61,205 bases of DNA from an uncultured Smithella sp. (GCA_964400795.1 CAYNWA010000011.1:26374-87578); one strand, 5' to 3'; counted from the first letter of the stretch, positions 56 to 61,205 are shown. The notes: generated by a model not told the origin, from the letters alone. A program made the numbers and translations.

Positions 56-1105
56 TTAATTTTTCTTGTTGCTTCGAAACTCTGCTAAAAGACTTTTAAC
101 ATAGTCCAAGTCAGCTTTTGAGTAATATCCCTTTCCCGCAAATTCATCTCCAACAGGAAGGACTCTCTGTTTAAAAGCATCAATTTCCGCCGGCGTCATT
201 TTAACTTCTTTCATGCCGTGTTTATACATGGCTGCAATGCCCTTTTCGTTAATTTTGCGGATTTCCTCCCTAAACTCCTTCTCTATTGATCGTAAGTAAT
301 TATCAATTGCATCTTGATCTTCCTTGGAAAGTTTGTTCCAAGCTTTTAACGATACAATACCGCCTGCCGGTGAATATCGTATGCGAAGAGGATTAAGGTA
401 TTGCATGGCATTATAGAGCTGAGCGCTGACCGCCCAGATCGCCGGGCTGATAAGAGCATCGCATACCCCTGTACGAACTGCAGAAGATATCTCCGTAGGG
501 CTAATGGGGATGGGACTGGTACCTAAAGCCTTTAGAGTCTTTTCTTCCATGGGACCATACCATGTTTGAAAACGACTTTTCTTGATATCATCAAAAGTCC
601 TGATTTCGTGCTTTGTGGAATAAATTTGATCAAAGCCCTGTTCTGCCAGAAGAACAAGGTGATAGCCTCTTTTTTCGAACCACTCATTAATACGGGGTCT
701 CATAATAGAATAAACATATTCAACTTCTTCATAATTATTAAATAAAAACGGAATTTCAAACAATGACATCTCGGGACAAAGCATCACCATTCCCCTTCCG
801 GAAAATCCGCCTCCCTGCAACTGCCCGTTGATCATTTTGGCCAATATCTGCTGTTCTTCTCCCATCTGAGCGCCGTAATACCAGTCCAAAGAAGCCCTGC
901 CATTTGTTGCCTTCGCTATCCCCGGATTAATAACATCGTTTATTAAAGCAGACCATCCCATATGGGCGGGCGCTATTGTCCCCATCTTAAAAACGTTTTT
1001 TGTTTGCTTAACATTTTCAGCTCCCCTTGCTTCCTGAGATAACACCGTCCCCATAAAAAACACAACAACGCCTAAGCAAAGAAGCTTTATTATATTGCGG
1101 CTCAT
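56..1105 (-). CDS. dctP: TRAP transporter substrate-binding protein, DctP family (TatP/TPAT-like)
   Basis: Signal peptide, then FKMGTIAPxxxGW, GAQMGEE, ELPF-like EIPFLF and EQGF motifs. Start moved from 1138 to the ATG at 1105, which has a GGAG RBS. Confidence 0.85.
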   Translation of the reverse strand: MSRNIIKLLCLGVVVFFMGTVLSQEARGAENVKQTKNVFKMGTIAPAHMGWSALINDVINPGIAKATNGRASLDWYYGAQMGEEQQILAKMINGQLQGGGFSGRGMVMLCPEMSLFEIPFLFNNYEEVEYVYSIMRPRINEWFEKRGYHLVLLAEQGFDQIYSTKHEIRTFDDIKKSRFQTWYGPMEEKTLKALGTSPIPISPTEISSAVRTGVCDALISPAIWAVSAQLYNAMQYLNPLRIRYSPAGGIVSLKAWNKLSKEDQDAIDNYLRSIEKEFREEIRKINEKGIAAMYKHGMKEVKMTPAEIDAFKQRVLPVGDEFAGKGYYSKADLDYVKSLLAEFRSNKKN

Positions 1106-1565
1106 AAAAATCTCCTTTCTGAGTACTTTAAAAGTCAATTATGAACGTAGTTTTTCCTTATTATATGCATATATCATAACATTATTATTTTGTTTTAAAA
1201 GAAAAAAATTCGAAGAAGATAATTTTATGTTTTGCTGCGACAAAAAACTTGTGATCGACATGCGCTGCTTCTCTATGCTTACGATATTTTACCCTATAAT
1301 TCTTATTAGACAATGATCAGCAATTCATTGTATAAAAAATATTATAATACAAGAAATAATATGAATATCAACAGGATTTTATTTACCAAAGAGTAAATAA
1401 CCATAAGCGCCACGCTCAATCTTCGGCACGCAACATTTACTCATTGGCAAATATAAAATTTTAAATTAAGCTTTAAACCATCGAAATAATATTCTTAACA
1501 ACTTCAGATCAGTACCATTAATTCATAAATGAAACTTTATAAGGAAACTAAATACTAATATAAAG

Positions 1566-3068
1566 ATGGGAATATTAAAATACACTTTAACAATATTCTT
1601 ATTATTGTTCTTTACCGGATTTTCATCAATTGCTTTTTCGGCAAATGATGCGCCCATGGATTTAATCGATGTTCAGATTAAAGCGAATCCGGGTAAAAGT
1701 GGCGTTTATGTGCTGGATACCGGAACAGAAGCCCTTCTGGCCAGGGCTTGGCTGGCGGACAACGCCCGGCAATCGATTGCTATCCAGTATTTTATCTGGA
1801 GCACGGATAACATCGGCATTCTGGCAGCGGAAGCATTACTGCGGGCGGCCCAGCGCGGCGTTCGGGTGCGGGTCATTGTGGATGACTTGCTGATCGACGC
1901 GCCGGACAAATCACTGCTCGCCCTGAGTCGACATCCGAATATCGAGATCCGCATCTATAATCCCAAACTATCTGTCGGTGTTCCTCTGCAAACCCGTCTT
2001 TTAAATGTGCTGACCCGTTTTCGGGGGGTCAATCAGCGCATGCATAACAAGGTTGTGGTTGTTGACGGAAAGATTGCCATCACCGGTGGACGGAACATGG
2101 CCGCCGAATATTATGACTATAATCATGAGTATAATTTCCGGGACAGAGACGTGCTGATGCTTGGCGAAACGGTCAAAACGATTCAGGCAAGCTTTGCAGA
2201 TTACTGGAACAGTGATCTGACCGTCAACGTTGAAGATCGCTTTAACGGCTGGGGCTTGATGAAGAAAAATGTCAATATTGATGAAAAGGACATCCAAAAA
2301 ATCTATCGCGACTTGCATACGTACGCGAAAATGCCGGAAAACTTTGCACCGGAAGTGAGGGCGGCCATCAATGATGTACCGACATCCTTTGCTACACTTG
2401 CACAGCAGATCATCTGGGGGCAGGTTGATTTCATCAGTGACCGGCCCGGCAAGAATAACCGTACCCTTTCTCTCGGAGGCGGCGGACAGGCTACACTGGA
2501 ACTGGCAAAACTGGTCGAAAAGGCAAAAAAGAGCATTGTCATCCAGTCGCCTTATCTGGTGCTTTCAGATGAAGCGATAGAATTATTCCGCAAATGCATT
2601 GCGCGCGGCGTAACGGTTCGCATCAATACCAATTCACTGGCTTCCACGGATAACCTCCAGGCGTTCAGTGGATACAGGAACCAGCGCAAACGGCTGCTGG
2701 ACATGGGTATTCATATCTACGAATGCAAACCCCAGCCGGATATTCAGCAAAAGCTCATGCAAAATTTTCCGGCGGCCAAGGGGACGCCCATTTTTTCACT
2801 GCATGCCAAGACGATGGTGATTGACAAAGAGATTGTCTTTATCGGAACCTTTAATTTAGATCCCCGTTCCGAGAATTTGAATACGGAAGCCGGAGCGATC
2901 ATTCACAACAGTGAACTCGCGCGTAAAATTAACGACCTGATTGAAATCGACATGGCGCCGGGTAACAGCTGGGATAGCGCCGAGGACGACCCTGATCAAT
3001 ACAGCTCGTTTGTCAAGCTCAACAAGGTAAGACTGTATCAAATGATGCCCATCAAACCGCTTCTTTGA
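1566..3068 (+). CDS. Exported phospholipase D family protein (ClsC/YmdC-like)
   Basis: Two HKD motifs (HNKVVVVD, HAKTMVID), GGRN and GTFNLDPRS. N-terminal signal peptide. Confidence 0.9.
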   Translation: MGILKYTLTIFLLLFFTGFSSIAFSANDAPMDLIDVQIKANPGKSGVYVLDTGTEALLARAWLADNARQSIAIQYFIWSTDNIGILAAEALLRAAQRGVRVRVIVDDLLIDAPDKSLLALSRHPNIEIRIYNPKLSVGVPLQTRLLNVLTRFRGVNQRMHNKVVVVDGKIAITGGRNMAAEYYDYNHEYNFRDRDVLMLGETVKTIQASFADYWNSDLTVNVEDRFNGWGLMKKNVNIDEKDIQKIYRDLHTYAKMPENFAPEVRAAINDVPTSFATLAQQIIWGQVDFISDRPGKNNRTLSLGGGGQATLELAKLVEKAKKSIVIQSPYLVLSDEAIELFRKCIARGVTVRINTNSLASTDNLQAFSGYRNQRKRLLDMGIHIYECKPQPDIQQKLMQNFPAAKGTPIFSLHAKTMVIDKEIVFIGTFNLDPRSENLNTEAGAIIHNSELARKINDLIEIDMAPGNSWDSAEDDPDQYSSFVKLNKVRLYQMMPIKPLL

Positions 3069-3297
3069 AGTAAAATGAGAATATTTTTCATAATGTACAA
3101 TATATTTCATCCAATCAAGAAATTGCAGCAATGATTCTTCCTGAAGTCAACAATCCAGATGACCACTCAAAATAATAACTCCTTTAACATAGGCTCCTTT
3201 CTAGCACAATTCTTAACCTTTCGCTGCATATCCGGCATTGACAGTAGCACTCTCTATATGAAATAAAGCATTCCTAAAAATCTTCTGGAGAAAAGAT

Positions 3298-6200
3298 TTG
3301 CAAAGCATCAGGCAAGATATTCGGCAAATCAGGCATAATCTTGATTCTGTCATGATTGCCGATTATTATCGTATATTCCGTCAGCTCAAAGGCCTCGAAG
3401 AGCATAAAATCAAGGATGGAAGATCCGCTTTAGGAACATTAAACCATCTGAAAAGAATAGCGGACCTTTCCGCCAACCGTTATCATAGCCGGAAGCAGAA
3501 TGTTCCCGCGGTAAGATTTTCACAAAACCTGCCGATCATTGCCAAAAAAAGAGAGATTGTTGAATGCATTCACAAGCATCAGGTCACGATCATTACCGGC
3601 GAGACCGGATCGGGAAAGACAACGCAGATTCCGAAGATGTGTCTTGCTGCCGGTCTAGGTCTGCGGGGCATGATCGGTCTGACCCAGCCCAGGCGGATTG
3701 CGGCTATCAGCATTGCCCAGCGCATTGCCTCGGAACTGGGCGAGGAGTGCGGCCAGTCGATCGCCTACAAAATCCGTTTTGAAGAAAAAAGCTCCTCCGA
3801 GCCTTTCATTAAAGTCATGACGGACGGCATTCTGCTAACGGAAACGGTCAAAGACAGGGACTTGCTGGCTTATGATACCATCATTGTCGATGAAGCCCAC
3901 GAACGCAGCCTGAATATTGATTTTATTCTGGGCTATCTGCGAACCCTGCTTGCCAGAAGAAAAGATTTGAAAGTTATCATTACGTCGGCAACCATCGATA
4001 CGGAAAAATTTTCCGAAGCGTTCAACAAGGCGCCGATCATCAAGGTTTCCGGCCGGATGTATCCGGTAGAGGTTCGTTACCGGCCGCTTGATCCAGAAAA
4101 AGAAGAAAAGGGCGAGACAACCTACATTGATGAAGCCGTGGTCTGCGTGGAACAGTTGCAGCGGGAACGGCGCTACGAAGATATTTTGATTTTCATGCCG
4201 ACCGAGCAGGACATCCGCGAAACCTGCGGACTGCTGGCTAAAAAATGTTCAGGTCTTGTTCTTCCTCTTTATGCACGATTATCCGGATCTCAGCAGAGAC
4301 TTATCTTCGCCGCCGCAGAAAAGCAGAAAATTATTGTGGCCACCAATATCGCCGAAACGTCGCTGACGATTCCCGGAATCAAATATGTGATTGACGCTGG
4401 ACTGGCGCGAATCCTGGAATACAATCCCCGCAGCCAGACGACCGGTCTGCCGATCAAACCGGTTTCCGCCAGCAGCGCCGAACAGCGAAAAGGACGCTGC
4501 GGCCGCGTGCAAAACGGCATCTGCATCCGGCTTTATTCGCAGGAGGAGTTTTTCCAAAAGCCTCTTTACACGCTGCCGGAAATTATGCGTTCCAATCTGG
4601 CTGGCGTCATTTTGCGGATGCTGGAGCTTAATCTTGGCGCAGTCACGTCCTTTCCGTTTATTGACAAGCCGCAACCCAAAAGTATGCGCGATGGTCTTGA
4701 TATCCTGCGCGATCTGGGAGCGCTGACCAAAGATGATCGTGCTGAAGAAACAAACCTTTATAAGCTGACGGATACCGGCTGGAAGATGGCGGCGTTTCCG
4801 CTTGATCCCCGGGCATCCCGAATGCTGATTGAAGCGCAGAAGGAAAACTGCGTCAACGAAATCGCCGTTATTGCCGCCGCCTTAAGCATTCAGGACCCGC
4901 GTGAACGTCCCTACGATAAAGCCGACGAGGCATCCAAAGCCCACGCGCAGTTCGCGCATCCGGAGTCGGACTTTTTAACCTATCTCAATATCTGGAACCG
5001 CTATCACGGATCACTGGAGAGCCTGCCGACGCAAAGCAAGCAAAGAAAATTCTGCCGCGATCATTTTCTTTCCTACAAGAGAATGATTGAATGGCGGGAC
5101 ATCTATCACCAGATCATGGACATTATCGACGGGAAGAACAAAACGGCAAAACAGAAGAAACATCACAAGATTGAAATTAATCAGGACATTTCCGACAGAA
5201 TTCACCGCTGTATTTTGAGCGGGTATCTTTCCAACATTGCCCGGAAGAAAGAGAAGAACTTTTACAACGCCGCCAAAAGCAGAGAGGTGATGATCTTTCC
5301 CGGCTCCGGCCTGTTCAATAAAGCAGGTCAATGGATCGTGGCCGGAGAAATCAGCCTCACCTCGCGGGTCTTCGCCCGCAATGTCGCCAATATCCAGAGC
5401 GATTGGCTGGAGAAACTGGGCGGTGAAAACTGTCGCTACACATATACCGCCGCTCACTGGGAAAAAAGCCGCGGGCAGGTGGTTGCTCTGGAGAAGGTAA
5501 CACTTTTCGGCTTAACGATCGTGGAAAGTCGCCCCGTTGCTTATGAAAGAATCACTCCGGAAGAAGCCAAATCCATATTCATCCGCGAAGCTCTTGTGCC
5601 CGGCGAAGTCGCCCGACGGATTCCTTTTCTCGAACACAATCTATCTTTATACGATAAAGTCAGAACCATGGAAGAAAAGCTGCGCCGGCGCGGCATTGTC
5701 GCCAACGAAGACACGATCGCCGACCTTTACGACCAACGGCTGCCGGTATTATCCGATATCCGGTCTCTGATGAATCTCATCCGGGAAAAAGGCAGCGATG
5801 AATTTCTGCGTTTTTGTGAAGAGGACTTAGTTGCCCATGAACCGGATGAAGAAGAAATGTCGCAGTATCCTGATCAGATAAAGTTGAAAGATGCGTCTTT
5901 GCGCTGTACCTATAATTTTGAGCCGGGCAAACGTGAGGATGGTGTAACGGTCAAGGTTCCGCTGGGACTGGTTTCCAGCGCGGCTAGGGAAAACATCGAC
6001 CGCTACCTGCCTTCCCTGCTGAAAGAAAAGGCCGTTCATTTATTAAAGACCCTGCCCAAATCATTGCGTCAGAGAATTCCATCGCCTGCCCAGGCCGCAC
6101 AGTTATTGCTGGGAGACAAATCCTATTTAAACAAACCTCTGCCACAGGCCTTGAGTGAATTGCTGCGCGATAAATACAAGATAACGGTTCCCCGCGATGC

Positions 6201-7468: not shown

Positions 7469-8530
7469 TCACTCTAAATGCAAAATCTTATCTATTATTC
7501 CTCCACCGAGAACCCTATCGTGGTCATAAAACACCACGGATTGTCCGGGCGTGATCGCTTCCTGTTCTTCGGCAAATATTACTTTCAATTTTTCTTTCTC
7601 TGTCTTTACTTCGCAAAGCGCCTCTTTTTTCCGGTATCTGATTTTCGCGTGCATTTGCGCGGGCCAGGCTTCTACCAGTATATTGACGCCGGATGCGACA
7701 AGACCTTTACCCATCAAATCTTTCTTGTCTCCCACAACAATGCGATTCTTCACCGGATCAATAGATACAACATACAGAGGCGTGGGATGGCTGATGCCCA
7801 GGCCTCCCCGCTGGCCGATGGTGTGAAAAATAATCCCCCGATGTTGTCCCAGCACTTTTCCGTGAATATCCACAATCGGCCCTGGCTTTATATCCTGTAC
7901 CCGCTCCATAAGAAATTCCTGAGAATTCTTCTGCGTCACAAAACAAATATCCTGACTTTCTTCTTTCACCGCCACCGGCAGTGAGTATTTTTTTGCCAAT
8001 TCTCGCACTTCATCCTTTGTCAGATGCGCAAGGGGAAACAGTATGTTGCCAATCCTTGAATAAGGAATGGAATAAAGAAAATAGGTCTGGTCTTTCCTTT
8101 TGTCTCTGGGCCTTACCAGACAATAGCCGTCTTCACGTTTTTCAATCGCCGCGTAATGGCCGGTTGCCAGAAAATGAAATCCCATCGACAGCGCTTTATC
8201 CAGAAGAGAACCGAATTTCAGATGACGGTTGCAGCGGACGCAGGGATTGGGCGTTCTCCCTTTCCGATATTCGCTGATAAAATCGGTAATGACCTTGTCT
8301 TCAAGTTGACCGGCGTAATCAAAAACATCATGAGGAATCTTGAGATAACTGCAAACTTTTTTTGCGTCGTCAATCGCAGCGGATGTACAGGATCTTTTTC
8401 GGTCTCCTTCAGTCAGCGAGCCAAAATTCATCGTTACACCGGAGACATTGTAGCCCTCATTTTTAAGCAGCAATGCCGCAACGGAAGAATCAATCCCACC
8501 ACTCATCGCCACTAAAACTTTATTGCCCAT
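7469..8530 (-). CDS. mnmA: tRNA 2-thiouridine(34) synthase MnmA
   Basis: AMSGGIDS, NPCVRCN, KDQTYFL, ESQDICF, TIGQR and ITPGQSVVFY. Start moved to the ATG at 8530 (AGAGGA RBS). Confidence 0.95.
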   Translation of the reverse strand: MGNKVLVAMSGGIDSSVAALLLKNEGYNVSGVTMNFGSLTEGDRKRSCTSAAIDDAKKVCSYLKIPHDVFDYAGQLEDKVITDFISEYRKGRTPNPCVRCNRHLKFGSLLDKALSMGFHFLATGHYAAIEKREDGYCLVRPRDKRKDQTYFLYSIPYSRIGNILFPLAHLTKDEVRELAKKYSLPVAVKEESQDICFVTQKNSQEFLMERVQDIKPGPIVDIHGKVLGQHRGIIFHTIGQRGGLGISHPTPLYVVSIDPVKNRIVVGDKKDLMGKGLVASGVNILVEAWPAQMHAKIRYRKKEALCEVKTEKEKLKVIFAEEQEAITPGQSVVFYDHDRVLGGGIIDKILHLE

Positions 8531-8640
8531 TAATCCTCTGGTTATATTAATGCATTCTTTGTACCGGCAGAGTATAAGAATAACGATATTTTGTGTCAAT
8601 AAAATATAAATTTTGACCGGATACTTAAAAGATTTCATGG

Positions 8641-8669
8641 TTGACATATAGTGCTGTTCTTCCTATACT
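8641..8669 (+). promoter_or_regulatory. Sigma70-type promoter for the DUF853 ATPase
   Basis: TTGACA, 17-bp spacer, TATACT. Confidence 0.75.
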
Positions 8670-8709
8670 TTCTCTCACCATAAATAAAACCACCTAACAA
8701 GGAGCCAAT

Positions 8710-10251
8710 ATGACCACACCGCTTGTCATCGCCATGTCGCAAGGGAAGGAAATTACATTACTGCCGCAGATGGCCAACCGCCACGGTTTGATTACCGGCG
8801 CCACCGGCACGGGTAAAACCGTCACGTTGCAAAAAATGGCCGAATCCTTCGCTTCCATCGGCGTTCCTGTTTTTATGGCGGATGTCAAGGGAGACCTTTC
8901 CGGCATCGGCGCGGCGGGTGTCGCTTCGGAAAAACTGCTCAAGCGCCTGGAAGGCATCGGTGTGAAAAATTACACGCCTCGGGCCAACACGACGGTGTTC
9001 TGGGATGTGTACGGTAAATCCGGTCATCCGGTACGCGCCACCATATCCGATATGGGGCCATTGCTTCTGGCGCGTCTGCTTAACCTCAATGACACGCAAT
9101 CCGGTGTTTTGCAGATTGTCTTCAAAATCGCCGACGACAACGGATTGCTGCTGATTGACCTGAAAGATCTGCGGGCCATGGTTCAATTCGTGGGGGACAA
9201 TGCCAAAAAATTCAAGACGGAATACGGAAATATCTCCGCCGCATCCATCGGCGCGATACAACGCGGACTGCTCACGATCGAAGAACAGGGCGGCGATAAA
9301 TTTTTCGGCGAACCGATGCTGGACATTTCGGATCTGATTCAGACGGACAGCGAAGGACGCGGCGTCATGAACATTCTGGCCGCCGATCAGCTCTATAATA
9401 ATCCCAAACTTTATTCGACGTTTCTGCTCTGGATGCTGGCCGAACTGTTTGAGCAGTTGCCGGAAATCGGCGATCCGGAAAAGCCCAAGCTGGTTTTCTT
9501 TTTTGATGAAGCGCATCTTCTTTTCAGCGAAGCGCCCAGGGCACTTCTGGAAAAAATCGAGCAGGTCGTTCGCCTGATTCGTTCCAAGGGCGTGGGTGTA
9601 TACTTTGTTACACAGAATCCGCTGGATATCCCGGATACGGTTCTGGCACAACTGGGCAACCGAGTCCAGCATGCTCTCCGCGCTTTTACGCCGCGTGACC
9701 AGAAAGCGGTGCAAACGGCTGCTTCTACGATGCGCCAGAATCCGGCCTTCGATGCTGAACAGGCCATTACCGAGCTGGGTGTCGGGGAAGCGCTGATTTC
9801 TTTTCTGGATGAAAAAGGACGTCCGAATATTGTCGAGCGATCCAATGTAATCGTTCCTTTCTCGCGCATGGGCGCCATGACACCCAATGAACGCCTGATG
9901 GCCATCAAATCTTCCACGATTTACGAGCATTATGAAAAAACCGTCGATCGTGAATCCGCCTACGAAAAACTGCGTGAAGCCCAACAGGAAGAGGAAGCGC
10001 CCGAAGAAAAACCCGCCATTAAAATGGAGCGGTCCAGGGCTCCGGCAAAGAATGACGAGGAGAAGGACAGCAGAGGCATGGGAGATGCACTCAGCAAAAT
10101 TATTTTCGGTAGCAAAGGTCCTCGCGGAGGACAACGGGAAGGCATGGTGCAGGCCGCAGCCAAAAGCGTGGCGCGCAGCATCGGTTCTTCATTGGGACGC
10201 CAGATTATCCGCGGTGTGCTGGGCTCAATCCTGGGCGGTTCCCGCCGCTGA
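8710..10251 (+). CDS. HerA-like ATPase, DUF853/YjgR family
   Basis: [32 protein letters not shown] and [10 protein letters not shown]. Confidence 0.9.
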
Positions 10252-10319
10252 TCAAGCAACTATGATTGTCTGAACTTTTTTAACAAGATCCTTATCGCAC
10301 TGACAAAAGGTGGTCAGCA

Positions 10320-12425
10320 ATGAATGTTATTTATCTAAGAACATTTTTTGTCAGCTATGTGTTGTTCATTTCTCTTTGTGTTATCGTCATAGCCCCCCTA
10401 TGGTGGCAAAATCGTAAACGCTTTCCGGAAATTGCTCTGTGGCTCACAGATTATATCTTTCAGTTCATAGGGCTCCTGCTCATTACATTACGCGAGATCA
10501 TCCCCGATTTTTTTTCGATTGTTGTCGCGAATATTCTCATCATTGGAGGAACCATTATTCTCTATATCGGTCTCTGCCGATATGTAAATCGCGGAACTCG
10601 TCAAATTCATAACTTCGTTATGCTGACCGTCTTCACGGTTTTTCAAACTTACCTCACCTATATTTATCCGAGCACGGCGTGGCGTACGATCAATATATCC
10701 GTTGCCCTGTTTTATATTTGCGCTCAGGCCTCCTGGCTGATGTTGCGCCGAGCAGATGCGTCTCTTCGATCGGCTACAAGACCGGCAGGTATTGTTTTTG
10801 CCGTGTTTTGTTTGATCAGCGTAATTCAAGTTATCGCCAATATCATTATTCCGGAAAAACATACGTTAATCGTGTCGTCTTTTTTCGGCATTACTGCCGT
10901 TGTTATGTATCAGATCGTTTTTGTTGCTTTAACCTTTGCCCTGTTTCTTATGGTAAGCCGCCGGTTGTCTATGGAACTGGAGGTAGAGATGACCCGGCGT
11001 GAACAGGAAGAGAGGATTATCCGGCTCCGGTTGTCTTTGCTGGAATTTGCCACAACGCACACACTGGATGAAGTCCTTCAAAAAACACTGGATGAAATCG
11101 GGAGTCTGCTAGAAAGTCCCGTCGGTTTCTATCACTTAGTTGATGAAGATCAGAAAAATCTTACGCTTCAAACATGGTCAAGTCGCACGTTGAAAGAGTT
11201 TTGCAACGCTGAAGGCAAAGGCATGCATTACAACATTGATCAGGCTGGCGTGTGGGTAGACTGCGTTTATCAAAAGCGTGCGGTGATTCACAACGATTAC
11301 TATGCGCTGCCTCATCGCAAAGGATTGCCGGAAGGACACGCACCGGTTATCCGGGAACTTATTGTGCCGATTTTGAGGAGCGGCAACGTCATGGCCATAC
11401 TCGGTATCGGAAATAAGCCGACATATTATACCGAGAAAGATGCCGAAATAGTTTCTTACCTGGCGGATGTGGCATGGGAAATTATCAACCATAAGAAGGC
11501 GGAAGAGGCTGTCAATCAGTATTCCAACGATCTGAAAGAGCGTGTCAAAGAACTCAATTGCCTCTACAAAATCTCTGAAATCGCTCAGAGAAAAGATATT
11601 TCTCAGGAGGAAATACTAAGGAAGTGCCCGTTGATTATTTCCCGGGCATATCGATTTCCGGAAATTACAGCTTGTCGCATCATCCTGGGTAATCATGAGT
11701 ATCGAACGGATAACTTCAACAAAACAAACTGGACGCAAAACAGCGTAATTGTCACTAACGGCGAACGGGTGGGGATAATTGAAGTCTTCTACTTGAAAGA
11801 AAAATGTAAGGCAAATGAGGACCCTTTTTTGGCCGAAGAACATAATCTGCTTGATGCGGTTGCGGATATTCTGGGAAAATCCATCGAACGAAGACAGGCG
11901 GAGGAGCGGATAAGATATCTGGCCTCGCATGATTTACTGACCGACCTGCCGAGTTTGAGATTGGCTATGGACAGGCTGGCTTCAGCGATGAATATAGCTC
12001 GCCGGTATAAAAAAGGAGCCGCCGTCATGTTCATCGACCTCGATGGTTTTAAAACCGTTAATGACACGCTCGGTCATGATGCCGGTGATTACGTATTAAA
12101 ACAAATTGCCCAACGTATGCTTTCCTGCGTACGTGAAACAGATACCGTCGCACGTGTCGGAGGTGATGAGTTTTTGATTATTGCGACAGAAATTATGACT
12201 GCCGACAATGCCACCCAGATTGCGCAAAAAGTAATTCAGACGGTTTCTCAACCGATTTTCATTAATGGTGAACAAGCCATGGTCAGTACCAGTATCGGCA
12301 TCGCGCTTTTCCCCGAACATGGTGAAGATATGGACAAATTGATCAAACTGGCTGACGAAGCCATGTATAAAGTTAAAAACTCCGGTAAGAACAATTTCCG
12401 TTTTGCAGATGCATCATTAAAATAA
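10320..12425 (+). CDS. Membrane sensor diguanylate cyclase (multi-TM, GAF, second sensor segment, GGDEF)
   Basis: About 7 hydrophobic segments, a GAF-like region (GVWVDCV...HNDY...ELIVPI), FIDLDGFKxVNDxxGH and RVGGDEF. Confidence 0.9.
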   Translation: MNVIYLRTFFVSYVLFISLCVIVIAPLWWQNRKRFPEIALWLTDYIFQFIGLLLITLREIIPDFFSIVVANILIIGGTIILYIGLCRYVNRGTRQIHNFVMLTVFTVFQTYLTYIYPSTAWRTINISVALFYICAQASWLMLRRADASLRSATRPAGIVFAVFCLISVIQVIANIIIPEKHTLIVSSFFGITAVVMYQIVFVALTFALFLMVSRRLSMELEVEMTRREQEERIIRLRLSLLEFATTHTLDEVLQKTLDEIGSLLESPVGFYHLVDEDQKNLTLQTWSSRTLKEFCNAEGKGMHYNIDQAGVWVDCVYQKRAVIHNDYYALPHRKGLPEGHAPVIRELIVPILRSGNVMAILGIGNKPTYYTEKDAEIVSYLADVAWEIINHKKAEEAVNQYSNDLKERVKELNCLYKISEIAQRKDISQEEILRKCPLIISRAYRFPEITACRIILGNHEYRTDNFNKTNWTQNSVIVTNGERVGIIEVFYLKEKCKANEDPFLAEEHNLLDAVADILGKSIERRQAEERIRYLASHDLLTDLPSLRLAMDRLASAMNIARRYKKGAAVMFIDLDGFKTVNDTLGHDAGDYVLKQIAQRMLSCVRETDTVARVGGDEFLIIATEIMTADNATQIAQKVIQTVSQPIFINGEQAMVSTSIGIALFPEHGEDMDKLIKLADEAMYKVKNSGKNNFRFADASLK

Positions 12426-50138: not shown

Positions 50139-50193
50139 TGGTGCCGAAGACTGGATTTGAACCAACACAGGCATACCTCCACAAGTCGCTGAA
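50139..50193 (-). pseudogene. Degenerate 3' fragment of tRNA-Leu (probable att scar)
   Basis: Minus strand reads TTCAG...GGAGGTATGCCT-GTGTTGGTTCAAATCCAGT-CTTCGGC-A-CCA: variable arm, T-loop and a Leu-type acceptor strand. No matching 5' half GCCGAAG is seen. Confidence 0.65.
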
Positions 50194-50346: not shown

Positions 50347-51192
50347 TCATTCCCGAATGACCTGTTGAGGAGATTTTTCAAGAACCAAGGGATTTTCCAC
50401 GCATTCTTTAAAAAATAAAAGTATGTCGCAGGCCTTTTTACCATCGAAGATTCGTTCATCTATGGTGAATCCGAATTTGATGACATCTGAAACTTTTAGC
50501 GTGCCTTCAGGTGTCACGACCGGTGCTTTATGCATTGCGCCTATAGTAACAAAAACCGATGCGTTCCCCCAGTCATAGAGATGATGATAAAGAGACTTTA
50601 AACCAAAAGATCCTATGTCTGAAACTACACACGAAGAAAACAAAGGGTTATCTTTATATGATGCATAGGGCAAAAGTCCTTTGTCAATCAGCCATGGATA
50701 TAATATCGCGCAAAATGACGAAATAAAATTGGGAAGTTTCATAAAGAAATCGATTATATTTTCATTGCTGTCGGCCGGTTTTTTAACTGTGTCATTAATA
50801 ATTTCTTTAATTTCCTTTGAGACGTCAAAAATATCCCATTCGGGTTGTCCAAATATTTTACGAAGAACAATTTTCCCGTTGATGTTTATAGCGAATGCTG
50901 CGGAATATTCACGTCTGGCGTAGAATTTATGATTATAAATAAATCTGTTTATCTCGGGAAACTGACTTGTTGTTCTAAGAAGAGCAGAAATGACCAGCTC
51001 AAAAATTGTGATATCATGACCTTCTTTTTTTTTGTTGTTTATAAAATTAACGGTGTGAGCAACGTCAACTTCCAGTTCATGCCAAACAATGGCTTCACTT
51101 CGTTTGGGCATGAAAAATGTGTAGCATTTCTGAAAACTGCTGATTGTTTTAAGATGGCGTCCATCTTTTCTTCCCATGTCAACCTCCGGCAA
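50347..51192 (-). CDS. Standalone 2-oxoacid dehydrogenase E2-like acyltransferase catalytic domain
   Basis: PEINRFI, SDIGSFG...YHHLYDWG and TIDERIFDG. No lipoyl or E3-binding domain. Confidence 0.75.
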   Translation of the reverse strand: MPEVDMGRKDGRHLKTISSFQKCYTFFMPKRSEAIVWHELEVDVAHTVNFINNKKKEGHDITIFELVISALLRTTSQFPEINRFIYNHKFYARREYSAAFAININGKIVLRKIFGQPEWDIFDVSKEIKEIINDTVKKPADSNENIIDFFMKLPNFISSFCAILYPWLIDKGLLPYASYKDNPLFSSCVVSDIGSFGLKSLYHHLYDWGNASVFVTIGAMHKAPVVTPEGTLKVSDVIKFGFTIDERIFDGKKACDILLFFKECVENPLVLEKSPQQVIRE

Positions 51193-51400
51193 AACAGAAT
51201 ATTCATTTGAGAGTTTTACTTGAAACTAATCGTGGTTTGGTATACATGAACAATGCAAAAAGTCAATAAGATGTTGGTCTTTAAATGTGCGAATTAAATG
51301 CGAAAAATAAAAATCTCCTTTTTAATAATTAAGATTCAGGTTATGTTTAACATCCGGTGTGTTCTGAAAAGAGGGACATTATTACCGGAGCGGTAAATTA

Positions 51401-52642
51401 ATGATGAAATGGATCAAGTTGTCATTACGCAATATATTAAGAAATAAACGCCGCTCTTTATTTACTATTGTCACCATAAGCATCGGTTTTGCTTCCATTG
51501 GATTGTGCTACGGATATCTTCATCATACCTATTGGGCTTTAAGCTATCTTGCTATTCACGGTGAAGGACTCGGACATCTGAGAATCAACAAAGCCGGATG
51601 GAAACAATATTCAAAGATGGACAAATTAAAATACATGTTTACATATGAAGAAACCCAAAAAATAATGAAGATTGTCGGTGAAGAAAAAGATGTGATATTG
51701 TCCACACCTCAGATTCAGCTCGCCGGTCTGGTGAGCAATGGTGAAATTTCCACTCTTTTTGTCGGTCAGGGTGTTGTCCCCAAAGACGATAAAATTCTTC
51801 AGACACAACGGTGGATCAAATATTCAAAGATCAAAGGGAAAAGATTGACGGAAGACGATCCCTCCGGTGTGGAGATGTCAAAAGGTTTGAGTAAATATCT
51901 CAATTTAATACCGGGGACAAAAGGCGTGGTTATGTCAAACACAGTCGATGGCCAGATGAAAGCTCTCGATATAAAAATAAATGGGGTCTACGATGCAGGA
52001 AATGAGATTTCCAATAACAAATTTTTACGATTCAATTTAAAATTTGTCCAGTCTCTCCTTGACACTCCATCGACAGAAAGAATCGTCGTTTTGCTCAAAG
52101 ACGTCACAGAAACAGAGGTAATGCGTAAACGCTTACTAAAGAAACTCGACGCTGCCGGCATAAATTGTGAAATGCTGACATGGAATGAATTGTCAATGGT
52201 TTATTCCAAGGTAAAATCTTTTCTCGACGCGATCTTTATTTTTCTTTTTGTTATCGTTTTGTTTATCGCAGTATTATCAATCATTAATACCATGAGCATG
52301 GTGGTCCTGGAAAGAACAAGAGAGATTGGGACATTGCGTACGCTGGGTTTAAAACGCAAAGGCGTAACCATAATTTTTGCTTTGGAGGGAGCTTGCCTGG
52401 GGTTTTTCGGCAGCATAGCCGGTTTTGTGTTGCATAGTGTCGTTGTGGGTATTACCAGATATCATCCCATGCGCTACACGCCGCCGGGTGCATCGAGTTC
52501 CGTATTGCTTTATATAGATATGGTGCCCGATGCGCTGTTTGTATTATTTATAAACTTTATTTTGCTGTCCATGGCGTCAGCTGTTGTTTCCGCCAGGCGC
52601 GCAGCCGGTAAAAATATTGTCGATGCGCTGGGGCATACTTGA
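51401..52642 (+). CDS. FtsX/LolE-type ABC permease (orphan in this window)
   Basis: RNILRNKRRS, VLERTREIGTLRTLG and IVDALGH. Confidence 0.88.
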   Translation: MMKWIKLSLRNILRNKRRSLFTIVTISIGFASIGLCYGYLHHTYWALSYLAIHGEGLGHLRINKAGWKQYSKMDKLKYMFTYEETQKIMKIVGEEKDVILSTPQIQLAGLVSNGEISTLFVGQGVVPKDDKILQTQRWIKYSKIKGKRLTEDDPSGVEMSKGLSKYLNLIPGTKGVVMSNTVDGQMKALDIKINGVYDAGNEISNNKFLRFNLKFVQSLLDTPSTERIVVLLKDVTETEVMRKRLLKKLDAAGINCEMLTWNELSMVYSKVKSFLDAIFIFLFVIVLFIAVLSIINTMSMVVLERTREIGTLRTLGLKRKGVTIIFALEGACLGFFGSIAGFVLHSVVVGITRYHPMRYTPPGASSSVLLYIDMVPDALFVLFINFILLSMASAVVSARRAAGKNIVDALGHT

Positions 52643-52943: not shown

Positions 52944-53801
52944 TTGAAAAATGTACTGGTTGCCGGAGCCTCATCCGGCATAGGACTTGCTGCATCGCGC
53001 CAACTTAATACTGACGGTTTCTGCGTCTACGCGGGCGCGCAATCATTCGGCAAAGAACAAATCGCATCCGAAGGGTTTATCATGTTGCCCCTGGATGTCA
53101 CCGATGATTTGTCCGTACAGGAAGCAATCCGGAATATTATACAAAGAGATGGCCGCATTGACGCGCTGGTAAACTGTGCCGCGTTTTTGACACTGGGAGC
53201 CTGCGAAGACGTCTCCGCTGAAGAATTACGCCTGGTCATGGAAACAAACTTTTTAGGAATGGCACGCATGACCCGGGCAGTGCTGCCAGCCATGCGCGAA
53301 CAGCAATATGGCCGTATTGTTAATATTTCATCTCTGAACGGTCTGTTCGGCATTCCTTTTCAGGGTGCCTATACAGCATCCAAGCACGCGATTGAAGGTT
53401 GGAGTGAAAGCCTTGCCCAGGAAACAAGACGATTCGGCATTTATGTGACCCTTGTGGAGCCGGGTGATTGTCGGGGCGGTGCTTTGAAGTACCGGACACG
53501 CGCGAAAGCTGCTGAGAAAAAAACTTCCCCTTATGCAGCATGGTATAAAAAAGCTGTCGACAAAATCATTCACGATGAACAAAACGGTCTCCATCCGGAG
53601 CGTGTGGCTCTTGCCATATCAAGCATTCTGCAAAGCCGGTGTCCGCCGTCTCGCCGAATTGTTGCAGATCCAATTCAGCGCTCGGCTGTTTTATTGCACA
53701 AGTTGCTGCCTCGTAGTGTATTTAACCGCATGATTGAAGTTTATTACACACCTGGGCAAGACGATATGCGATCTGAAATAAAAAAAATGGAGGGTAATTG
53801 A
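52944..53801 (+). CDS. Short-chain dehydrogenase/reductase; candidate 3-ketosphinganine reductase
   Basis: GASSGIG, NCA, YTASK and EPGD. Its stop overlaps the next ATG (TGATG). Confidence 0.85.
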   Translation: MKNVLVAGASSGIGLAASRQLNTDGFCVYAGAQSFGKEQIASEGFIMLPLDVTDDLSVQEAIRNIIQRDGRIDALVNCAAFLTLGACEDVSAEELRLVMETNFLGMARMTRAVLPAMREQQYGRIVNISSLNGLFGIPFQGAYTASKHAIEGWSESLAQETRRFGIYVTLVEPGDCRGGALKYRTRAKAAEKKTSPYAAWYKKAVDKIIHDEQNGLHPERVALAISSILQSRCPPSRRIVADPIQRSAVLLHKLLPRSVFNRMIEVYYTPGQDDMRSEIKKMEGN

Positions 53802-55057
53802 TGCCGGGGGAAAAAGATCAGCTGGCTTCGGCATTGCAGCAGGTTTTAAATAAAAAACAATCCAATAGAGATCCAAGAGTATTTACTGAAGACGTCTCTG
53901 TGCAACTGGCGATACTGATGAAAGAAATGGGATTGTATCCTTACTTCATGCCGATATCAGGGCAAATCGGACCGCGAATAATCATTGACGGCAGAGATAC
54001 CATTAACCTTGGCTCCAACAATTACATGGGACTGGCAAACCATCCGGATATGATTAAAGCCGGATGCGATGCCATGAGGAAATACGGTACGGGGTGCACG
54101 GGATCGCGCTTTCTCAATGGAACGCTTGAAATTCATAATGAACTGGAAGCAAAACTTGCAAAATTCTTTCAAAAAGAAGCCGCTCTTTGCTTTACGACGG
54201 GGATGCAGACGAACCTTGGCGTTATCTCTGGAATTACTCATAAGGGTGACCACATCATTTCCGATGAGAATAATCATGCCAGCATTATTGATGGCTGTCG
54301 GCTTTCACGTGCCAGCACTCATGTTTACAAGTATAATAATATGGATGATCTGAAAAGAGTTCTGACCGGTCTTCCAGAACAAGGTAACCGCTGGATCATC
54401 AGTGATAGTATTTTTTCCATGGAAGGGAATGTTGCTCAGATACCGCGTATTGTCGAACTGGCTGAAAGATACAGCGCGCGTGTAATTATTGACGATGCCC
54501 ATGGTATTGGCCACTTCGGGGAGCACGGGGAAGGTATTTGCGGACATTTGGGGTTAATGGATAAGATCGACATCCTCGTCGGTACATTTTCCAAATCATT
54601 TGCCAGCATTGGAGGTTTTTGCGCGGCCGGCAGAGAGATTATTCAACACCTTCAGCATCATGCGCGCAGTTTGATTTTCAGCGCTTCGATGCCCCCGGCT
54701 ATGGTTGCTACGGCCAGCAAAGCCCTGGATATCTTTTATGATGACGATAAAAGAAGAAAACAGGTTTTGCAAAATGCTTCCATTCTAAGAAAAGGTATAG
54801 AGTCTCTGGGGTTTAGAACTGTCCCACAAAAGATACCCACACCCATCATTCCCATTATTGTAGGAGATGTAATGAAATTAGCTTATTTCAGCAAGGGACT
54901 TCTGGAAAACGGTGTCTATATAAATCCGGTCATTCCTCCTGCGTCATCGGAAGCCATGATCAGAATGTCCGTTATGGCTACTCATTGTCAAAAGGATCTC
55001 AAAGATGCCCTGATCATATTGGAAAAAGAAGGCAGGAAACTGGATTTGATAAAATAA
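53801..55057 (+). CDS. spt: Serine palmitoyltransferase-like alpha-oxoamine synthase
   Basis: GLYPYF, GSNNYMGL, YGTGCTGSRFLNGT, NHASIIDG, DDAH, GTFSKS (PLP Lys), IFSAS, NPVIPPA and RMSVMATH. GGAGGG RBS. Confidence 0.78.
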   Translation: MPGEKDQLASALQQVLNKKQSNRDPRVFTEDVSVQLAILMKEMGLYPYFMPISGQIGPRIIIDGRDTINLGSNNYMGLANHPDMIKAGCDAMRKYGTGCTGSRFLNGTLEIHNELEAKLAKFFQKEAALCFTTGMQTNLGVISGITHKGDHIISDENNHASIIDGCRLSRASTHVYKYNNMDDLKRVLTGLPEQGNRWIISDSIFSMEGNVAQIPRIVELAERYSARVIIDDAHGIGHFGEHGEGICGHLGLMDKIDILVGTFSKSFASIGGFCAAGREIIQHLQHHARSLIFSASMPPAMVATASKALDIFYDDDKRRKQVLQNASILRKGIESLGFRTVPQKIPTPIIPIIVGDVMKLAYFSKGLLENGVYINPVIPPASSEAMIRMSVMATHCQKDLKDALIILEKEGRKLDLIK

Positions 55058-55134
55058 CGAACTTATCGAGAATAACACATAATCATATCGCATTAACCAT
55101 TTCAAGATTATAAATTGTTACCAAAGGAAGCATC

Positions 55135-55842
55135 ATGAAACTCAAACAGAACCAAGACGGTAAAAAAGTACTAAAAACAATTTCCAATGATCGCACAAGA
55201 ACCAATTTAATAAGAAAGCCTGAACACATTGCGTTGGTTTTTTTAGTTCAACGCATTCCTTCCTGGATGAGTTCAGACACGCTTACGTTTATCGGATTGT
55301 TAGGAAGCGCAATAACGCTGACGGGTTTTGTTTTAGCCGCCCATATTCAACCCTGCTATTTTTTACTGTGTGTTCTGGGTTTGGCCATAAACTGGTTTGG
55401 TGACTCTCTGGATGGACGACTTGCCTTCTATCGCAACAAATCCCGTCAATGGTATGGATTTACGCTTGATATTATCATCGATTGGATAAGTATAATTTTA
55501 ATAGGTTTGGGATATTTGCTTTATGTTGAAGGCAACTGGAAACTGGCAGGTTTCGGACTCATTGTTTTGTATGGATGGAGTATGCTGATTACGTTGTTAC
55601 GGTATAAAGTTACGGGGAAATATATCATTGATTCCGGTATTTTCGGACCGACGGAAGTCAGGATTCTCATAGCGCTCTTTTTAATTCTTGAAATATTTTT
55701 CAAAGACATCATTTTGTATTCTGCAGCGCTTGCTTGCCTTGTTTTATTCTTCATCAATATTACCGACTCTCTTAAATTGCTAAGCCTTGCTCATGGCAGG
55801 GATCTTGAAGAAAAGCAAAATAATTTATACGGGAAAAAATGA
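55135..55842 (+). CDS. CDP-alcohol phosphatidyltransferase family protein
   Basis: DSLDGRLA...G...D...D signature and GPTEVR; multi-TM. Confidence 0.9.
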   Translation: MKLKQNQDGKKVLKTISNDRTRTNLIRKPEHIALVFLVQRIPSWMSSDTLTFIGLLGSAITLTGFVLAAHIQPCYFLLCVLGLAINWFGDSLDGRLAFYRNKSRQWYGFTLDIIIDWISIILIGLGYLLYVEGNWKLAGFGLIVLYGWSMLITLLRYKVTGKYIIDSGIFGPTEVRILIALFLILEIFFKDIILYSAALACLVLFFINITDSLKLLSLAHGRDLEEKQNNLYGKK

Positions 55843-59717: not shown

Positions 59718-61205
59718 TTACAAATTGAATTTAATGCCCAGCATTGCTTGATAATTAAGAACACCGCCATATTCCGTATCTTCATTTCCCACGTTAATCG
59801 CTGTAGTACCAAAAATATCCCAATAATCACCCAGTGAATATGAAAAGAGTCCAAATAATTGGCCGGAGCCATCATCGAAATTTTGCGTCCAGCGTAAGGT
59901 AACGGCTAATCTGTTGAATATGTTAACCTGATGATATTGAAGCATGACGTAGTTTCTGCGTAAAAATCTTAGCCCGGGATCTGTGGGTTGAGAAGAAAGA
60001 TAGTCTAAGATATCTTCCTTGGTTTTCAACGCCCAACGGCTATTCTTTTTGTGTATCGTACGATCGTAATCGTCAGAAGCTTCTTGTAGAGTAGAGAAAG
60101 CCAGGTTGGCTTCATCTTTATCATAACCAACTCCATTATATAAATACTCCAGGGTTAAGGTACCTCCATTGAAAAACGTGTATGCCCCTCCGGCCAGAAT
60201 GGATGGCCTAATATCATTGTCATCACTATGGATCTGTTGCAGGGAGGCTCCGAAACGTGATGAATCCTTTACAGGATACCACGCGTTGCTTCCTTGTCGT
60301 ACATTTCCTTCTGTGTAAAGCAGCAGAGCATCAGATGCTGTCCATACACCGAAAAAGCCGAATTTATCCGTTTGATTGGCTTCCTTTCTTGAATAAATTA
60401 AAGATCCGTAACCGTTAACACCTGTATAATCAATCTTAAGGGCATAGGTTTTATCAAAAGGTTCCAAATTGGGGAGGGTATTACGTCCTTCATCCGTATT
60501 AGCAATCAGAGATATTGACCAGTCGGAATGGGGAACCAACAAAAGACGAACGAAATCCATTCCCTGAATTTCCGCGTAGGTATTGCCCCGGCCGTTATCG
60601 CTAAAAAAAGGATTAGACGGAGAAACAAGGAAAGAAGGACCCCATTGCAGATTTTCTCTTCCGTAGGACACAAAAAGTCTGTTCCACCCATTTAGTCTGA
60701 CTAACCATTCGTTTACGTACCAGTCATCTTTTCCTTCTGTATCTCCTTCACGCATCCCTTCTTCCCAAAGCCGACAGTCGAGTTTCGCTCTGGGTTTGGC
60801 GGAAAGCTCCAGGTAATTTGAATTAAAATAGAAATCGGGCCTTATTTCCAGATCAGCACGATAATGCGGAATTTCAAGAAAATCATTGTTGGGATTGCGG
60901 CTCGATTCAACGGGATCCTGAGCAATTCCATAAGCGAGGACTTTCAAATCTGACGAAAAAAAATTCCTGATTTTTTGTAATGTCGTTTGGTTTTCGGCAT
61001 CCATCAGTATCATATCGATATTTTCATCGGATAAACGTAATGCCTCCGGATTTCCTTCAACGGAAGGAGCGCTTGTAATACCTGACGTTTCCTCCGGAAG
61101 AGCTTTTGGAGATTGAGAGGAATATTGATCTTCGACAAACTCTTCATGAGGATTTTCTGTAGCCCGGGCTGGACTCGGCATCCATAAAAAAGGAACAATG
61201 ACTAG
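59718..61205 (-). CDS. Exported, probable outer-membrane beta-barrel protein; 5'-partial (frame open to the window edge)
   Basis: The frame continues upstream of 61181 as LVIVPFLW-MPSPARA, resembling a signal peptide. GRENLQWG motif, alternating beta-strand pattern and C-terminal GIKFNL. Confidence 0.7.
   Translation of the reverse strand, partial: LVIVPFLWMPSPARATENPHEEFVEDQYSSQSPKALPEETSGITSAPSVEGNPEALRLSDENIDMILMDAENQTTLQKIRNFFSSDLKVLAYGIAQDPVESSRNPNNDFLEIPHYRADLEIRPDFYFNSNYLELSAKPRAKLDCRLWEEGMREGDTEGKDDWYVNEWLVRLNGWNRLFVSYGRENLQWGPSFLVSPSNPFFSDNGRGNTYAEIQGMDFVRLLLVPHSDWSISLIANTDEGRNTLPNLEPFDKTYALKIDYTGVNGYGSLIYSRKEANQTDKFGFFGVWTASDALLLYTEGNVRQGSNAWYPVKDSSRFGASLQQIHSDDNDIRPSILAGGAYTFFNGGTLTLEYLYNGVGYDKDEANLAFSTLQEASDDYDRTIHKKNSRWALKTKEDILDYLSSQPTDPGLRFLRRNYVMLQYHQVNIFNRLAVTLRWTQNFDDGSGQLFGLFSYSLGDYWDIFGTTAINVGNEDTEYGGVLNYQAMLGIKFNL

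Follow-up and report, generated by a model that had tools for sequence, protein, structure and literature searches.

A stand-alone E2-type gene at the edge of a tRNA-Leu island

The window, which is the whole stretch of 61,205 nucleotides that was analysed from an uncultured Smithella sp., carries on its minus strand an open reading frame (50347-51192) that encodes a small protein of the E2 acyltransferase type, here named E2L. The start codon of E2L is likely the ATG at 51177, as read from the sequence, because GGAGG lies 6 nt upstream of it and because every close homologue is 276 aa long. E2L and the features that surround it are listed here, with coordinates counted from the first nucleotide of the window:

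50139..50163, minus strand: 3' end of a tRNA-Leu(CAG), 25 nt, attachment-site scar at the island edge (comparison with congeners)
50347..51177, minus strand: E2L, stand-alone E2-catalytic-domain acyltransferase, 276 aa plus stop codon (ORF, PF00198, AF2 model, homologue length)
50440..50460, minus strand: DERIFDG motif, residues 240-246 of E2L (aligned column by column to DHRMIDG of PDB 1b5s)
50581..50586, minus strand: His198-His199 dyad, proposed relocated catalytic base (alignment of 74 family members; trimer model)
51178..51400, no strand: intergenic region between the divergent E2L and FtsX-type permease genes (sequence reading)
51401..52642, plus strand: FtsX/MacB/LolCE-type permease, divergent partner of E2L (PF02687)
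52944..55842, plus strand: operon of SDR (KdsR-like), SPT-like and CDP-alcohol phosphotransferase-like genes (Pfam, NCBIfam)

The tRNA fragment is located between dsbD and E2L, where ARAGORN detected no whole tRNA. An intact tRNA-Leu(CAG) is found beside the dsbD orthologue in two island-free congeners, G006 and G024 (L192 2389-2475; L193 1284-1370), and the fragment is identical to the 3' end of the G024 tRNA. Because of this scar, and of the intact tRNA in the island-free congeners, E2L can be placed first among the genes of an island that integrated at tRNA-Leu, which agrees with the position given to it by the first-pass annotation. GC content goes down to 0.366 at 50-52 kb, and a member of the E2L family was found in only one of 24 congeners, at 31% identity. 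At the genome level the locus is closest to MAGs of Smithella and Syntrophaceae, with 95% and 92% protein identity and full synteny, and a sediment metagenome contig is 99% identical to it. An intact copy of the tRNA-Leu would be expected at the far end of the island, past the end of the contig (C11), which comes 1164 nt after that of the window.

E2L is transcribed divergently from the permease and lies outside the SPT operon. The intergenic region holds, besides the GGAGG ahead of the E2L start codon, a putative promoter (TTGACT-17-TATACC). In the operon the SDR and SPT-like genes (52944-55057) overlap; the top model for the SPT-like gene is NF047600 (455 bits, under the cut-off of 640), while the SDR is of the classical type, not CerR-type, and has KdsR as its top NCBIfam model (NF049977, 235 bits, under the cut-off of 400). 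The best homologues of the SPT-like gene in the phylum have 44-50% identity and score highest against the CFB-type SPT model. Further genes of the island encode a flippase, two Stealth transferases and a 487-aa protein. Domain annotation of the island genes left E2L as the only acyltransferase-like one, as had been claimed from the sequence.

The permease (51401-52642), a 252-aa gene past the window (G000:C11:87623-88378) and the 487-aa gene (59718-61181) together make up an additional, rearranged copy of an operon whose parent, conserved in the genus, has the order ABC ATPase-FtsX-252aa-487aa (L040, L041). This FtsX-252aa-487aa copy has no ATPase, and the sphingolipid and Stealth genes are found between its parts.

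E2L has an E2 fold and a conserved, probably rewired active site

PF00198, the acyltransferase catalytic domain of 2-oxoacid dehydrogenases, is the sole Pfam domain in E2L (E 3.9e-16, 59.7 bits with respect to a cut-off of 23), and no lipoyl or subunit-binding domain was found by Pfam. Scores against the NCBIfam E2 equivalogs are 17-33 bits, far under the cut-offs of 378-449. A match to the CAT family was not obtained either, since PF00198 is the only family found at E<=0.01 and E2 cores make up the Foldseek hits listed. The AF2 model of E2L, built on 74 relatives, has a mean pLDDT of 94.8, and its top Foldseek hits are all E2 catalytic cores (E ~1e-16, TM 0.6-0.7). No E1 or E3 gene was found in the searched neighbourhood of E2L, which is also the sole PF00198 gene in the genome (97.7% complete). 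These results support the first-pass description of an E2 catalytic domain that is free of a lipoyl domain and of E1/E3 neighbours. The same description stated that the DHRxxDG motif is replaced by DERIFDG; residues 240-246 indeed align with DHRMIDG of 1b5s, and Glu241 occupies the position of the catalytic His of E2 and CAT enzymes.

An exhaustive HMMER search, with clustering at 50% identity, gave 1221 clusters of relatives at E<=1e-3 and 529 at E<=1e-10, most of which are stand-alone proteins of 270-300 aa. The motif in 123 motif-bearing relatives is DER in 105, DDR in 12, DNR in 3, DSR in 2 and DTR in 1, and none of the 123 has DHR. Across 74 aligned members, which have 24-35% identity to the window protein, H198 and D240 never vary, and conservation is at least 90% for H199, R242 and G246. 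The traits of this DER/HH family are a length of ~270-300 aa, PF00198 alone, the motif D-[ED]-R-x-x-D-G and an HH dyad ~42 residues upstream, and E2L fits all of them. Glu241 is a conserved trait of the family and not a private loss of the His. The HH dyad aligns with the 'TP' of the FTPVIN strand in E2p (1b5s), which would pair with the strand bearing the E2 oxyanion Ser/Thr; the position of this Ser/Thr is not conserved in the E2L family.

A model of three copies of E2L with CoA reached an ipSAE of 0.92, compared with 0.00 for the best control, a score that may reflect the likeness of E2L to solved E2 cores; among proteins of solved structure, 20 of 30 that are one-chain pairs and 1 of 23 that are single chains attain the mark used for ipSAE. 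Contacts in the trimer model agree between runs by at least 96%, and the pLDDT of the partner is at least 88. More specifically, residues 198 and 199 are predicted to contact residue 241 of the next subunit (198-241' and 199-241'), with an expected error of ~1.1-1.2 A.

The first-pass annotation had read the lost His as a sign of altered chemistry or of a non-catalytic role. If the catalytic His is simply gone, E2L could be a pseudoenzyme that serves as scaffold or regulator, a view in keeping with the Glu in the canonical motif and with the variable residue at the E2 oxyanion position. We consider this very improbable: members with no more than 25-35% identity to one another all, or nearly all, keep H198, D240, R242 and G246, the predicted active-site interface has HH placed against E241, and acyl-CoA ligases recur as partners of the family. 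Because DER is conserved throughout the family, and because the invariant HH dyad is modelled against the Glu, the idea of a lost His with altered or no catalysis should give way to that of a conserved, rewired site; we judge it more probable that E2L is active, with its base relocated, than that it is dead.

Compared with E2 cores (Geobacillus stearothermophilus E2p, PDB 1b5s; Listeria E2, 3mae), E2L has in common PF00198, the fold and a collinear D-x-R-x-x-D-G, together with a predicted trimer that has the same kind of inter-subunit site, although here the model may echo the solved E2 cores. It differs from them by the absence of lipoyl and subunit-binding domains and of E1/E3 partners among its neighbours, by the Glu in place of the His of DHRxxDG, by HH where E2 has the 'TP' of FTPVIN and by an identity of only 15-20%; its family is found in anaerobes, and the genome has no other PF00198 gene. 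The CAT/E2 superfamily also includes chloramphenicol acetyltransferase, NRPS condensation domains, WS/DGAT and PapA5. Its common logic is a His-centred motif followed by xxxDG; long acyl chains serve as substrates of some members, and condensation domains catalyse amide formation. Whereas CAT, condensation domains, WS/DGAT and PapA5 have the His within an HHxxxDG-type motif, the His of E2L would act from ~42 residues upstream and, according to the model, from another subunit.

Literature searches for stand-alone PF00198 proteins or E2-like sphingolipid enzymes returned nothing relevant. The E2L family is thus large and uncharacterised, with at least 1221 clusters at 50% identity and a presence in 38% of the sampled Bacillota class, and it clearly illustrates how an active site of the E2/CAT fold can be rewired. 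A second stand-alone E2-like type is present in Desulfobacterota (L057, L058 and L059, in G180, G269 and G081); these proteins keep DHRxxDG and have no HH dyad, so both active-site layouts exist in stand-alone forms.

The genome has no recognisable ceramide synthase

The published pathway is Spt-bCerS-CerR (Stankeviciute et al. 2022, as presented in PMC11334938 and PMC11087976). The common Desulfobacterota unit, composed of a CerR-like reductase of the NAD-dependent epimerase/dehydratase type, an SPT-like gene and a GNAT of ~380 aa (L071-L082; L078 8991-12079, L082 7940-10294), matches this pathway by the description given in those two papers. In G150, SPT and GNAT are fused in one protein of 784 aa. 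The GNAT family is wider than SPT (101 versus 51 of 300 Desulfobacterota genomes), so some GNATs probably acylate other amines.

In the genome of the window, no bCerS-like GNAT was found by tblastn with nine SPT-adjacent GNATs, by a genome sequence search with one SPT-adjacent GNAT, or at E<=10 by a profile HMM of 9 SPT-adjacent GNATs, for which held-out positives score 1e-142 to 1e-169. The Lag1/TLC domain PF03798 was likewise absent at E<=0.01. The profile, made from SPT-adjacent GNATs of the same phylum, was used in place of PF13480 and PF13444, which had been tried as stand-ins for bCerS; the sole match of PF13480 is a weak one to a generic 235-aa GNAT, and PF13444 has no match. As no ceramide synthase of the bCerS or Lag1 type is found in this 97.7%-complete genome, the N-acyl step has no assigned enzyme here. 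The earlier statement that a recognisable ceramide synthase is missing is thereby confirmed, and a bCerS homologue elsewhere in the genome or island, which the same annotation had named as evidence against its proposal, was looked for and none was found.

E2L does not co-occur with SPT but is complementary to the bCerS-like GNAT

Co-occurrence of E2L and SPT across genomes, suggested as a check of the N-acyltransferase idea, was not observed. We used a Bacillota sample of 300 genomes from the class that holds G043, with SPT-like genes counted at E<=1e-85: E2L is present in 114/300, an SPT-like gene in 66/300 and both in 23 (odds ratio 0.84, p 0.57). E2L does not adjoin SPT in any of these 23 genomes, and a distance of 40 kb or more separates the two genes wherever they share a contig. 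Nine of 300 Desulfobacterota genomes match the E2L profile, 7 of them with a DER-type protein, and SPT-like genes at E<=1e-104 are found in 2 of these 9 versus 47 of the 291 others. E2L is next to SPT only in the lineage of the window (L013, L014, L085). The nearest outside orthologue, at 68% identity (L015/G041, L087, L088), keeps its FtsX partner (69%) and the Stealth, flippase, GT2 and deacetylase genes; the SPT operon is absent from L015, L087 and L088, and G041, a genome with no completeness figure, has no alpha-oxoamine synthase at E<=1e-20. Since E2L is far commoner than SPT, with an SPT-like gene in only 23 of the 114 E2L-bearing genomes, other acceptors must exist in the family, and a role confined to ceramide synthesis is excluded for the family as a whole.

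We also compared the distribution of E2L with that of the bCerS-like GNAT among SPT+ genomes, taking SPT-like genes at E<=1e-100, and found the two to be complementary. In Desulfobacterota, 49 of the 51 genomes with an SPT-like gene have the GNAT, and a DER-type E2L is confined to the two that do not (G081 and G269, of one family; 2/2 versus 0/49); a weaker E2L match in G276 and the second matches in G081 and G269 are not of the DER/HH type. The genome of the window is likewise SPT+, GNAT- and E2L+. In the Bacillota class, which has 41 SPT-like genomes at this threshold, E2L is present in 9/11 genomes without the GNAT versus 10/30 with it (Fisher p 0.012), a difference to be read with the fact that related genomes are not independent, as collapsing by lineage gives p ~0.08 by hand estimate. 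Few independent lineages underlie the complementarity: Desulfobacterota contribute one besides that of the window, and Bacillota about five of seven. Such a pattern in two independent groups is what a non-orthologous replacement would be expected to give.

An additional link to SPT concerns the Bacillota genomes with at least two E2L matches, which are SPT+ in 10/14 cases versus 38/286 (p 3e-6; ~0.002 after lineage collapse, by hand estimate). The second copies form a separate clade in the tree. At 9 of 13 loci of this extra paralogue, E2L is directly followed by a FadD-like acyl-CoA ligase of ~570 aa, and in 4 a MarR-like gene is found ahead of E2L.

With bCerS, E2L would share cytoplasmic, acyl-CoA-dependent N-acylation of the SPT product, a likeness that is only proposed. 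The folds are different (E2/CAT versus GNAT), and bCerS-like genes are usually directly beside SPT, up to the fusion in G150, unlike E2L, which adjoins SPT in the lineage of the window only.

In G081 and G269 the SPT-like gene adjoins AmtB and E2L is found behind a GMC-oxidoreductase-like gene, so this context gives no direct link between E2L and SPT. More precisely, in L128 (G269), E2L (9997-10827) starts 20 nt past the GMC-oxidoreductase-like gene (8151-9977; 608 aa), which belongs by PDB hits to the cholesterol/choline/alcohol oxidase family, and a 637-aa gene with no PDB relative comes after E2L. The second gene downstream of SPT in G530, G478, G556 and G451 proved to be an uninformative diaminopimelate dehydrogenase. 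SPT-like genes of the Bacillota class are often directly followed by a classical SDR that is 31-35% identical to the SDR of the window (L179, L180, L182 and L188, in G412, G454, G624 and G442); the pairing of SPT and SDR therefore recurs beyond the phylum.

Close relatives of E2L are found beside lipid transporters and acyl-CoA ligases

The window protein belongs to a distinct deep clade of 8 rows (support 100). An FtsX-type permease is found beside the clade members of the window, L015, L087 and L088; in L090 the start of a FadD-like ligase gene overlaps the stop of E2L, in L091 an ABCB/MsbA-type exporter is 16 nt upstream of E2L, and in L089 E2L adjoins a PF03706 'flippase-like' membrane protein, several of these neighbour genes being named by PDB sequence matches or precomputed Pfam labels only. 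A distant relative, P0057, is fused to an AMP-binding-type domain. The clade neighbours have a common theme, activated fatty acid in and membrane lipid out. No shared theme was found for the neighbours of the common Bacillota copies, which include gluconolactonase-like, MATE, PduL, amidase, thymidine kinase and EamA genes.

These neighbourhoods bear on two other explanations. One is that E2L is an active acyltransferase that takes its acceptor from a transporter/phosphoglycan module, the SPT operon being a variable cargo of the same island; E2L would then O-acylate either a phosphosugar conjugate made by Stealth or some lipid or lipoprotein on which the FtsX-type permease acts. In L015, L087 and L088 the E2L-FtsX pair does recur in the company of Stealth, flippase, GT2 and polysaccharide-deacetylase genes, SPT being absent there, G041 has no SPT-like gene at E<=1e-20, and other members of the window clade adjoin different lipid transporters. 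In addition, capsules made by Stealth proteins, such as that of meningococcal serogroup A, are commonly O-acetylated, but the polysaccharide O-acyltransferases known to us are all of other folds. We find this explanation rather unlikely, as it leaves unaccounted for both the enrichment of E2L in SPT+ GNAT- genomes and the link of the extra paralogue with SPT, and as the FadD-like ligase partners suggest long acyl chains and not acetyl.

The other explanation is that E2L has a general function unrelated to the island, perhaps like that of single-copy relatives in numerous small Bacillota genomes, and just travels with the FtsX gene at the island edge. In its favour are the occurrence of the family in 38% of the genomes sampled from the Bacillota class, some of them of 0.8-1.5 Mb, the varied Bacillota neighbours and a separate clade that adjoins Kbl. 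The clade of the window is, however, a distinct deep branch with support of 100; its E2L is carried on mobile DNA and is absent from 23/24 congeners, and its neighbours are consistently lipid transporters or ligases, so that a function of this kind seems improbable here.

A candidate N-acyltransferase for the product of SPT and SDR

Based on these results, we favour a role for E2L as an active, CoA-dependent acyltransferase of a large, uncharacterised stand-alone E2-fold family. As in E2 and CAT enzymes, E2L is probably a trimer with active sites at the subunit interfaces, according to the structure models. His198-His199 of the facing subunit would be positioned against Glu241, and this His-Glu pair most likely replaces the old general-base His, with His198/His199 as the base and Glu241 orienting it. 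E2L is probably a lipid acyltransferase with activity, for which we infer catalysis, donor, acceptor and product as follows: the acyl donor is probably fatty acyl-CoA, the most likely acceptor in this genome would be the long-chain amino alcohol formed by the SPT-like enzyme and the SDR, and the product is probably a membrane lipid that is passed on by the adjacent transporter. E2L may thus carry out the N-acyl step in a genome without bCerS. This reading is plausible because it combines an enzyme of the right kind, a step without assigned enzyme and a complementary pattern in two groups; we estimate at roughly 0.4 the probability that E2L N-acylates the SPT/SDR product in this island, in the manner of a ceramide synthase.

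Somewhat less likely than this is the wider proposal, which we put forward tentatively, that some DER/HH proteins evolved convergently into ceramide synthases of a third class, next to Lag1/CerS and GNAT-type bCerS, with a His-Glu pair across the trimer interface. To our knowledge, many SPT-bearing bacteria have no known ceramide synthase, and a third class, if real, would explain N-acylation in SPT+ bacteria without bCerS; its representatives would be, here, a gene on the mobile island of a Smithella-like syntroph and, among Bacillota of the gut and rumen, the paralogue in an acyl-CoA ligase operon. Bacterial sphingolipids influence host immunity and membrane biology. Even with another acceptor, the pairing with acyl-CoA ligases and lipid transporters would mark an unrecognised lipid-modifying enzyme of anaerobes.

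Loci with other alpha-oxoamine synthases

An SDR adjoins E2L in L018, L021 and L022. In L016, from a Christensenellales MAG, a 1117-aa protein (532-4658) is a fusion of acyl-AMP ligase, carrier domain and alpha-oxoamine synthase (FAAL-ACP-AOS). An SDR adjoins this fusion that is 59% identical to the SDR of the window, which is unusually close across phyla, and E2L is located ~5-6 kb from the fusion.

The carrier domain of L016 is relevant to one more explanation, in which E2L would transfer acyl groups from thiol to thiol, between CoA and a carrier thiol such as that of acyl carrier protein, as a true E2 does. Acyl chains from the FadD-like ligases would be fed into SPT or other lipid synthesis, with no amide bond formed by E2L. 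The fold and the trimer are shared with enzymes that move acyl groups between CoA and a swinging-arm thiol, E2L is coupled to acyl-CoA ligases, the FAAL-ACP-AOS fusion is near E2L in L016, and the link with SPT would be explained with no need for adjacency. Yet neither the window nor any examined locus has an ACP gene adjoining E2L, the catalytic residues of true E2 are lost, and the enrichment of E2L specifically where the bCerS-like GNAT is missing is left unexplained. We consider thiol transfer quite improbable, and retain N-acylation of the SPT/SDR product as the preferred reading.

The alpha-oxoamine synthases beside E2L in the metagenome loci L111, L112, L119 and L124 were considered as SPT candidates and turned out to be Kbl; the kbl neighbour is a glycine C-acetyltransferase (~600 bits with respect to a cut-off of 460). 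The links of E2L with enzymes that form or reduce alpha-amino ketones, through the SDR, FAAL-ACP-AOS and Kbl, were found after the fact and are weak. The four loci represent a Kbl-linked E2L clade, with 46-52% mutual identity among L112, L119 and L124, in which the E2L gene converges on kbl. A small ORF lies between E2L and kbl in L124 and L112, and that of L124 matches an FmdB-type zinc ribbon.
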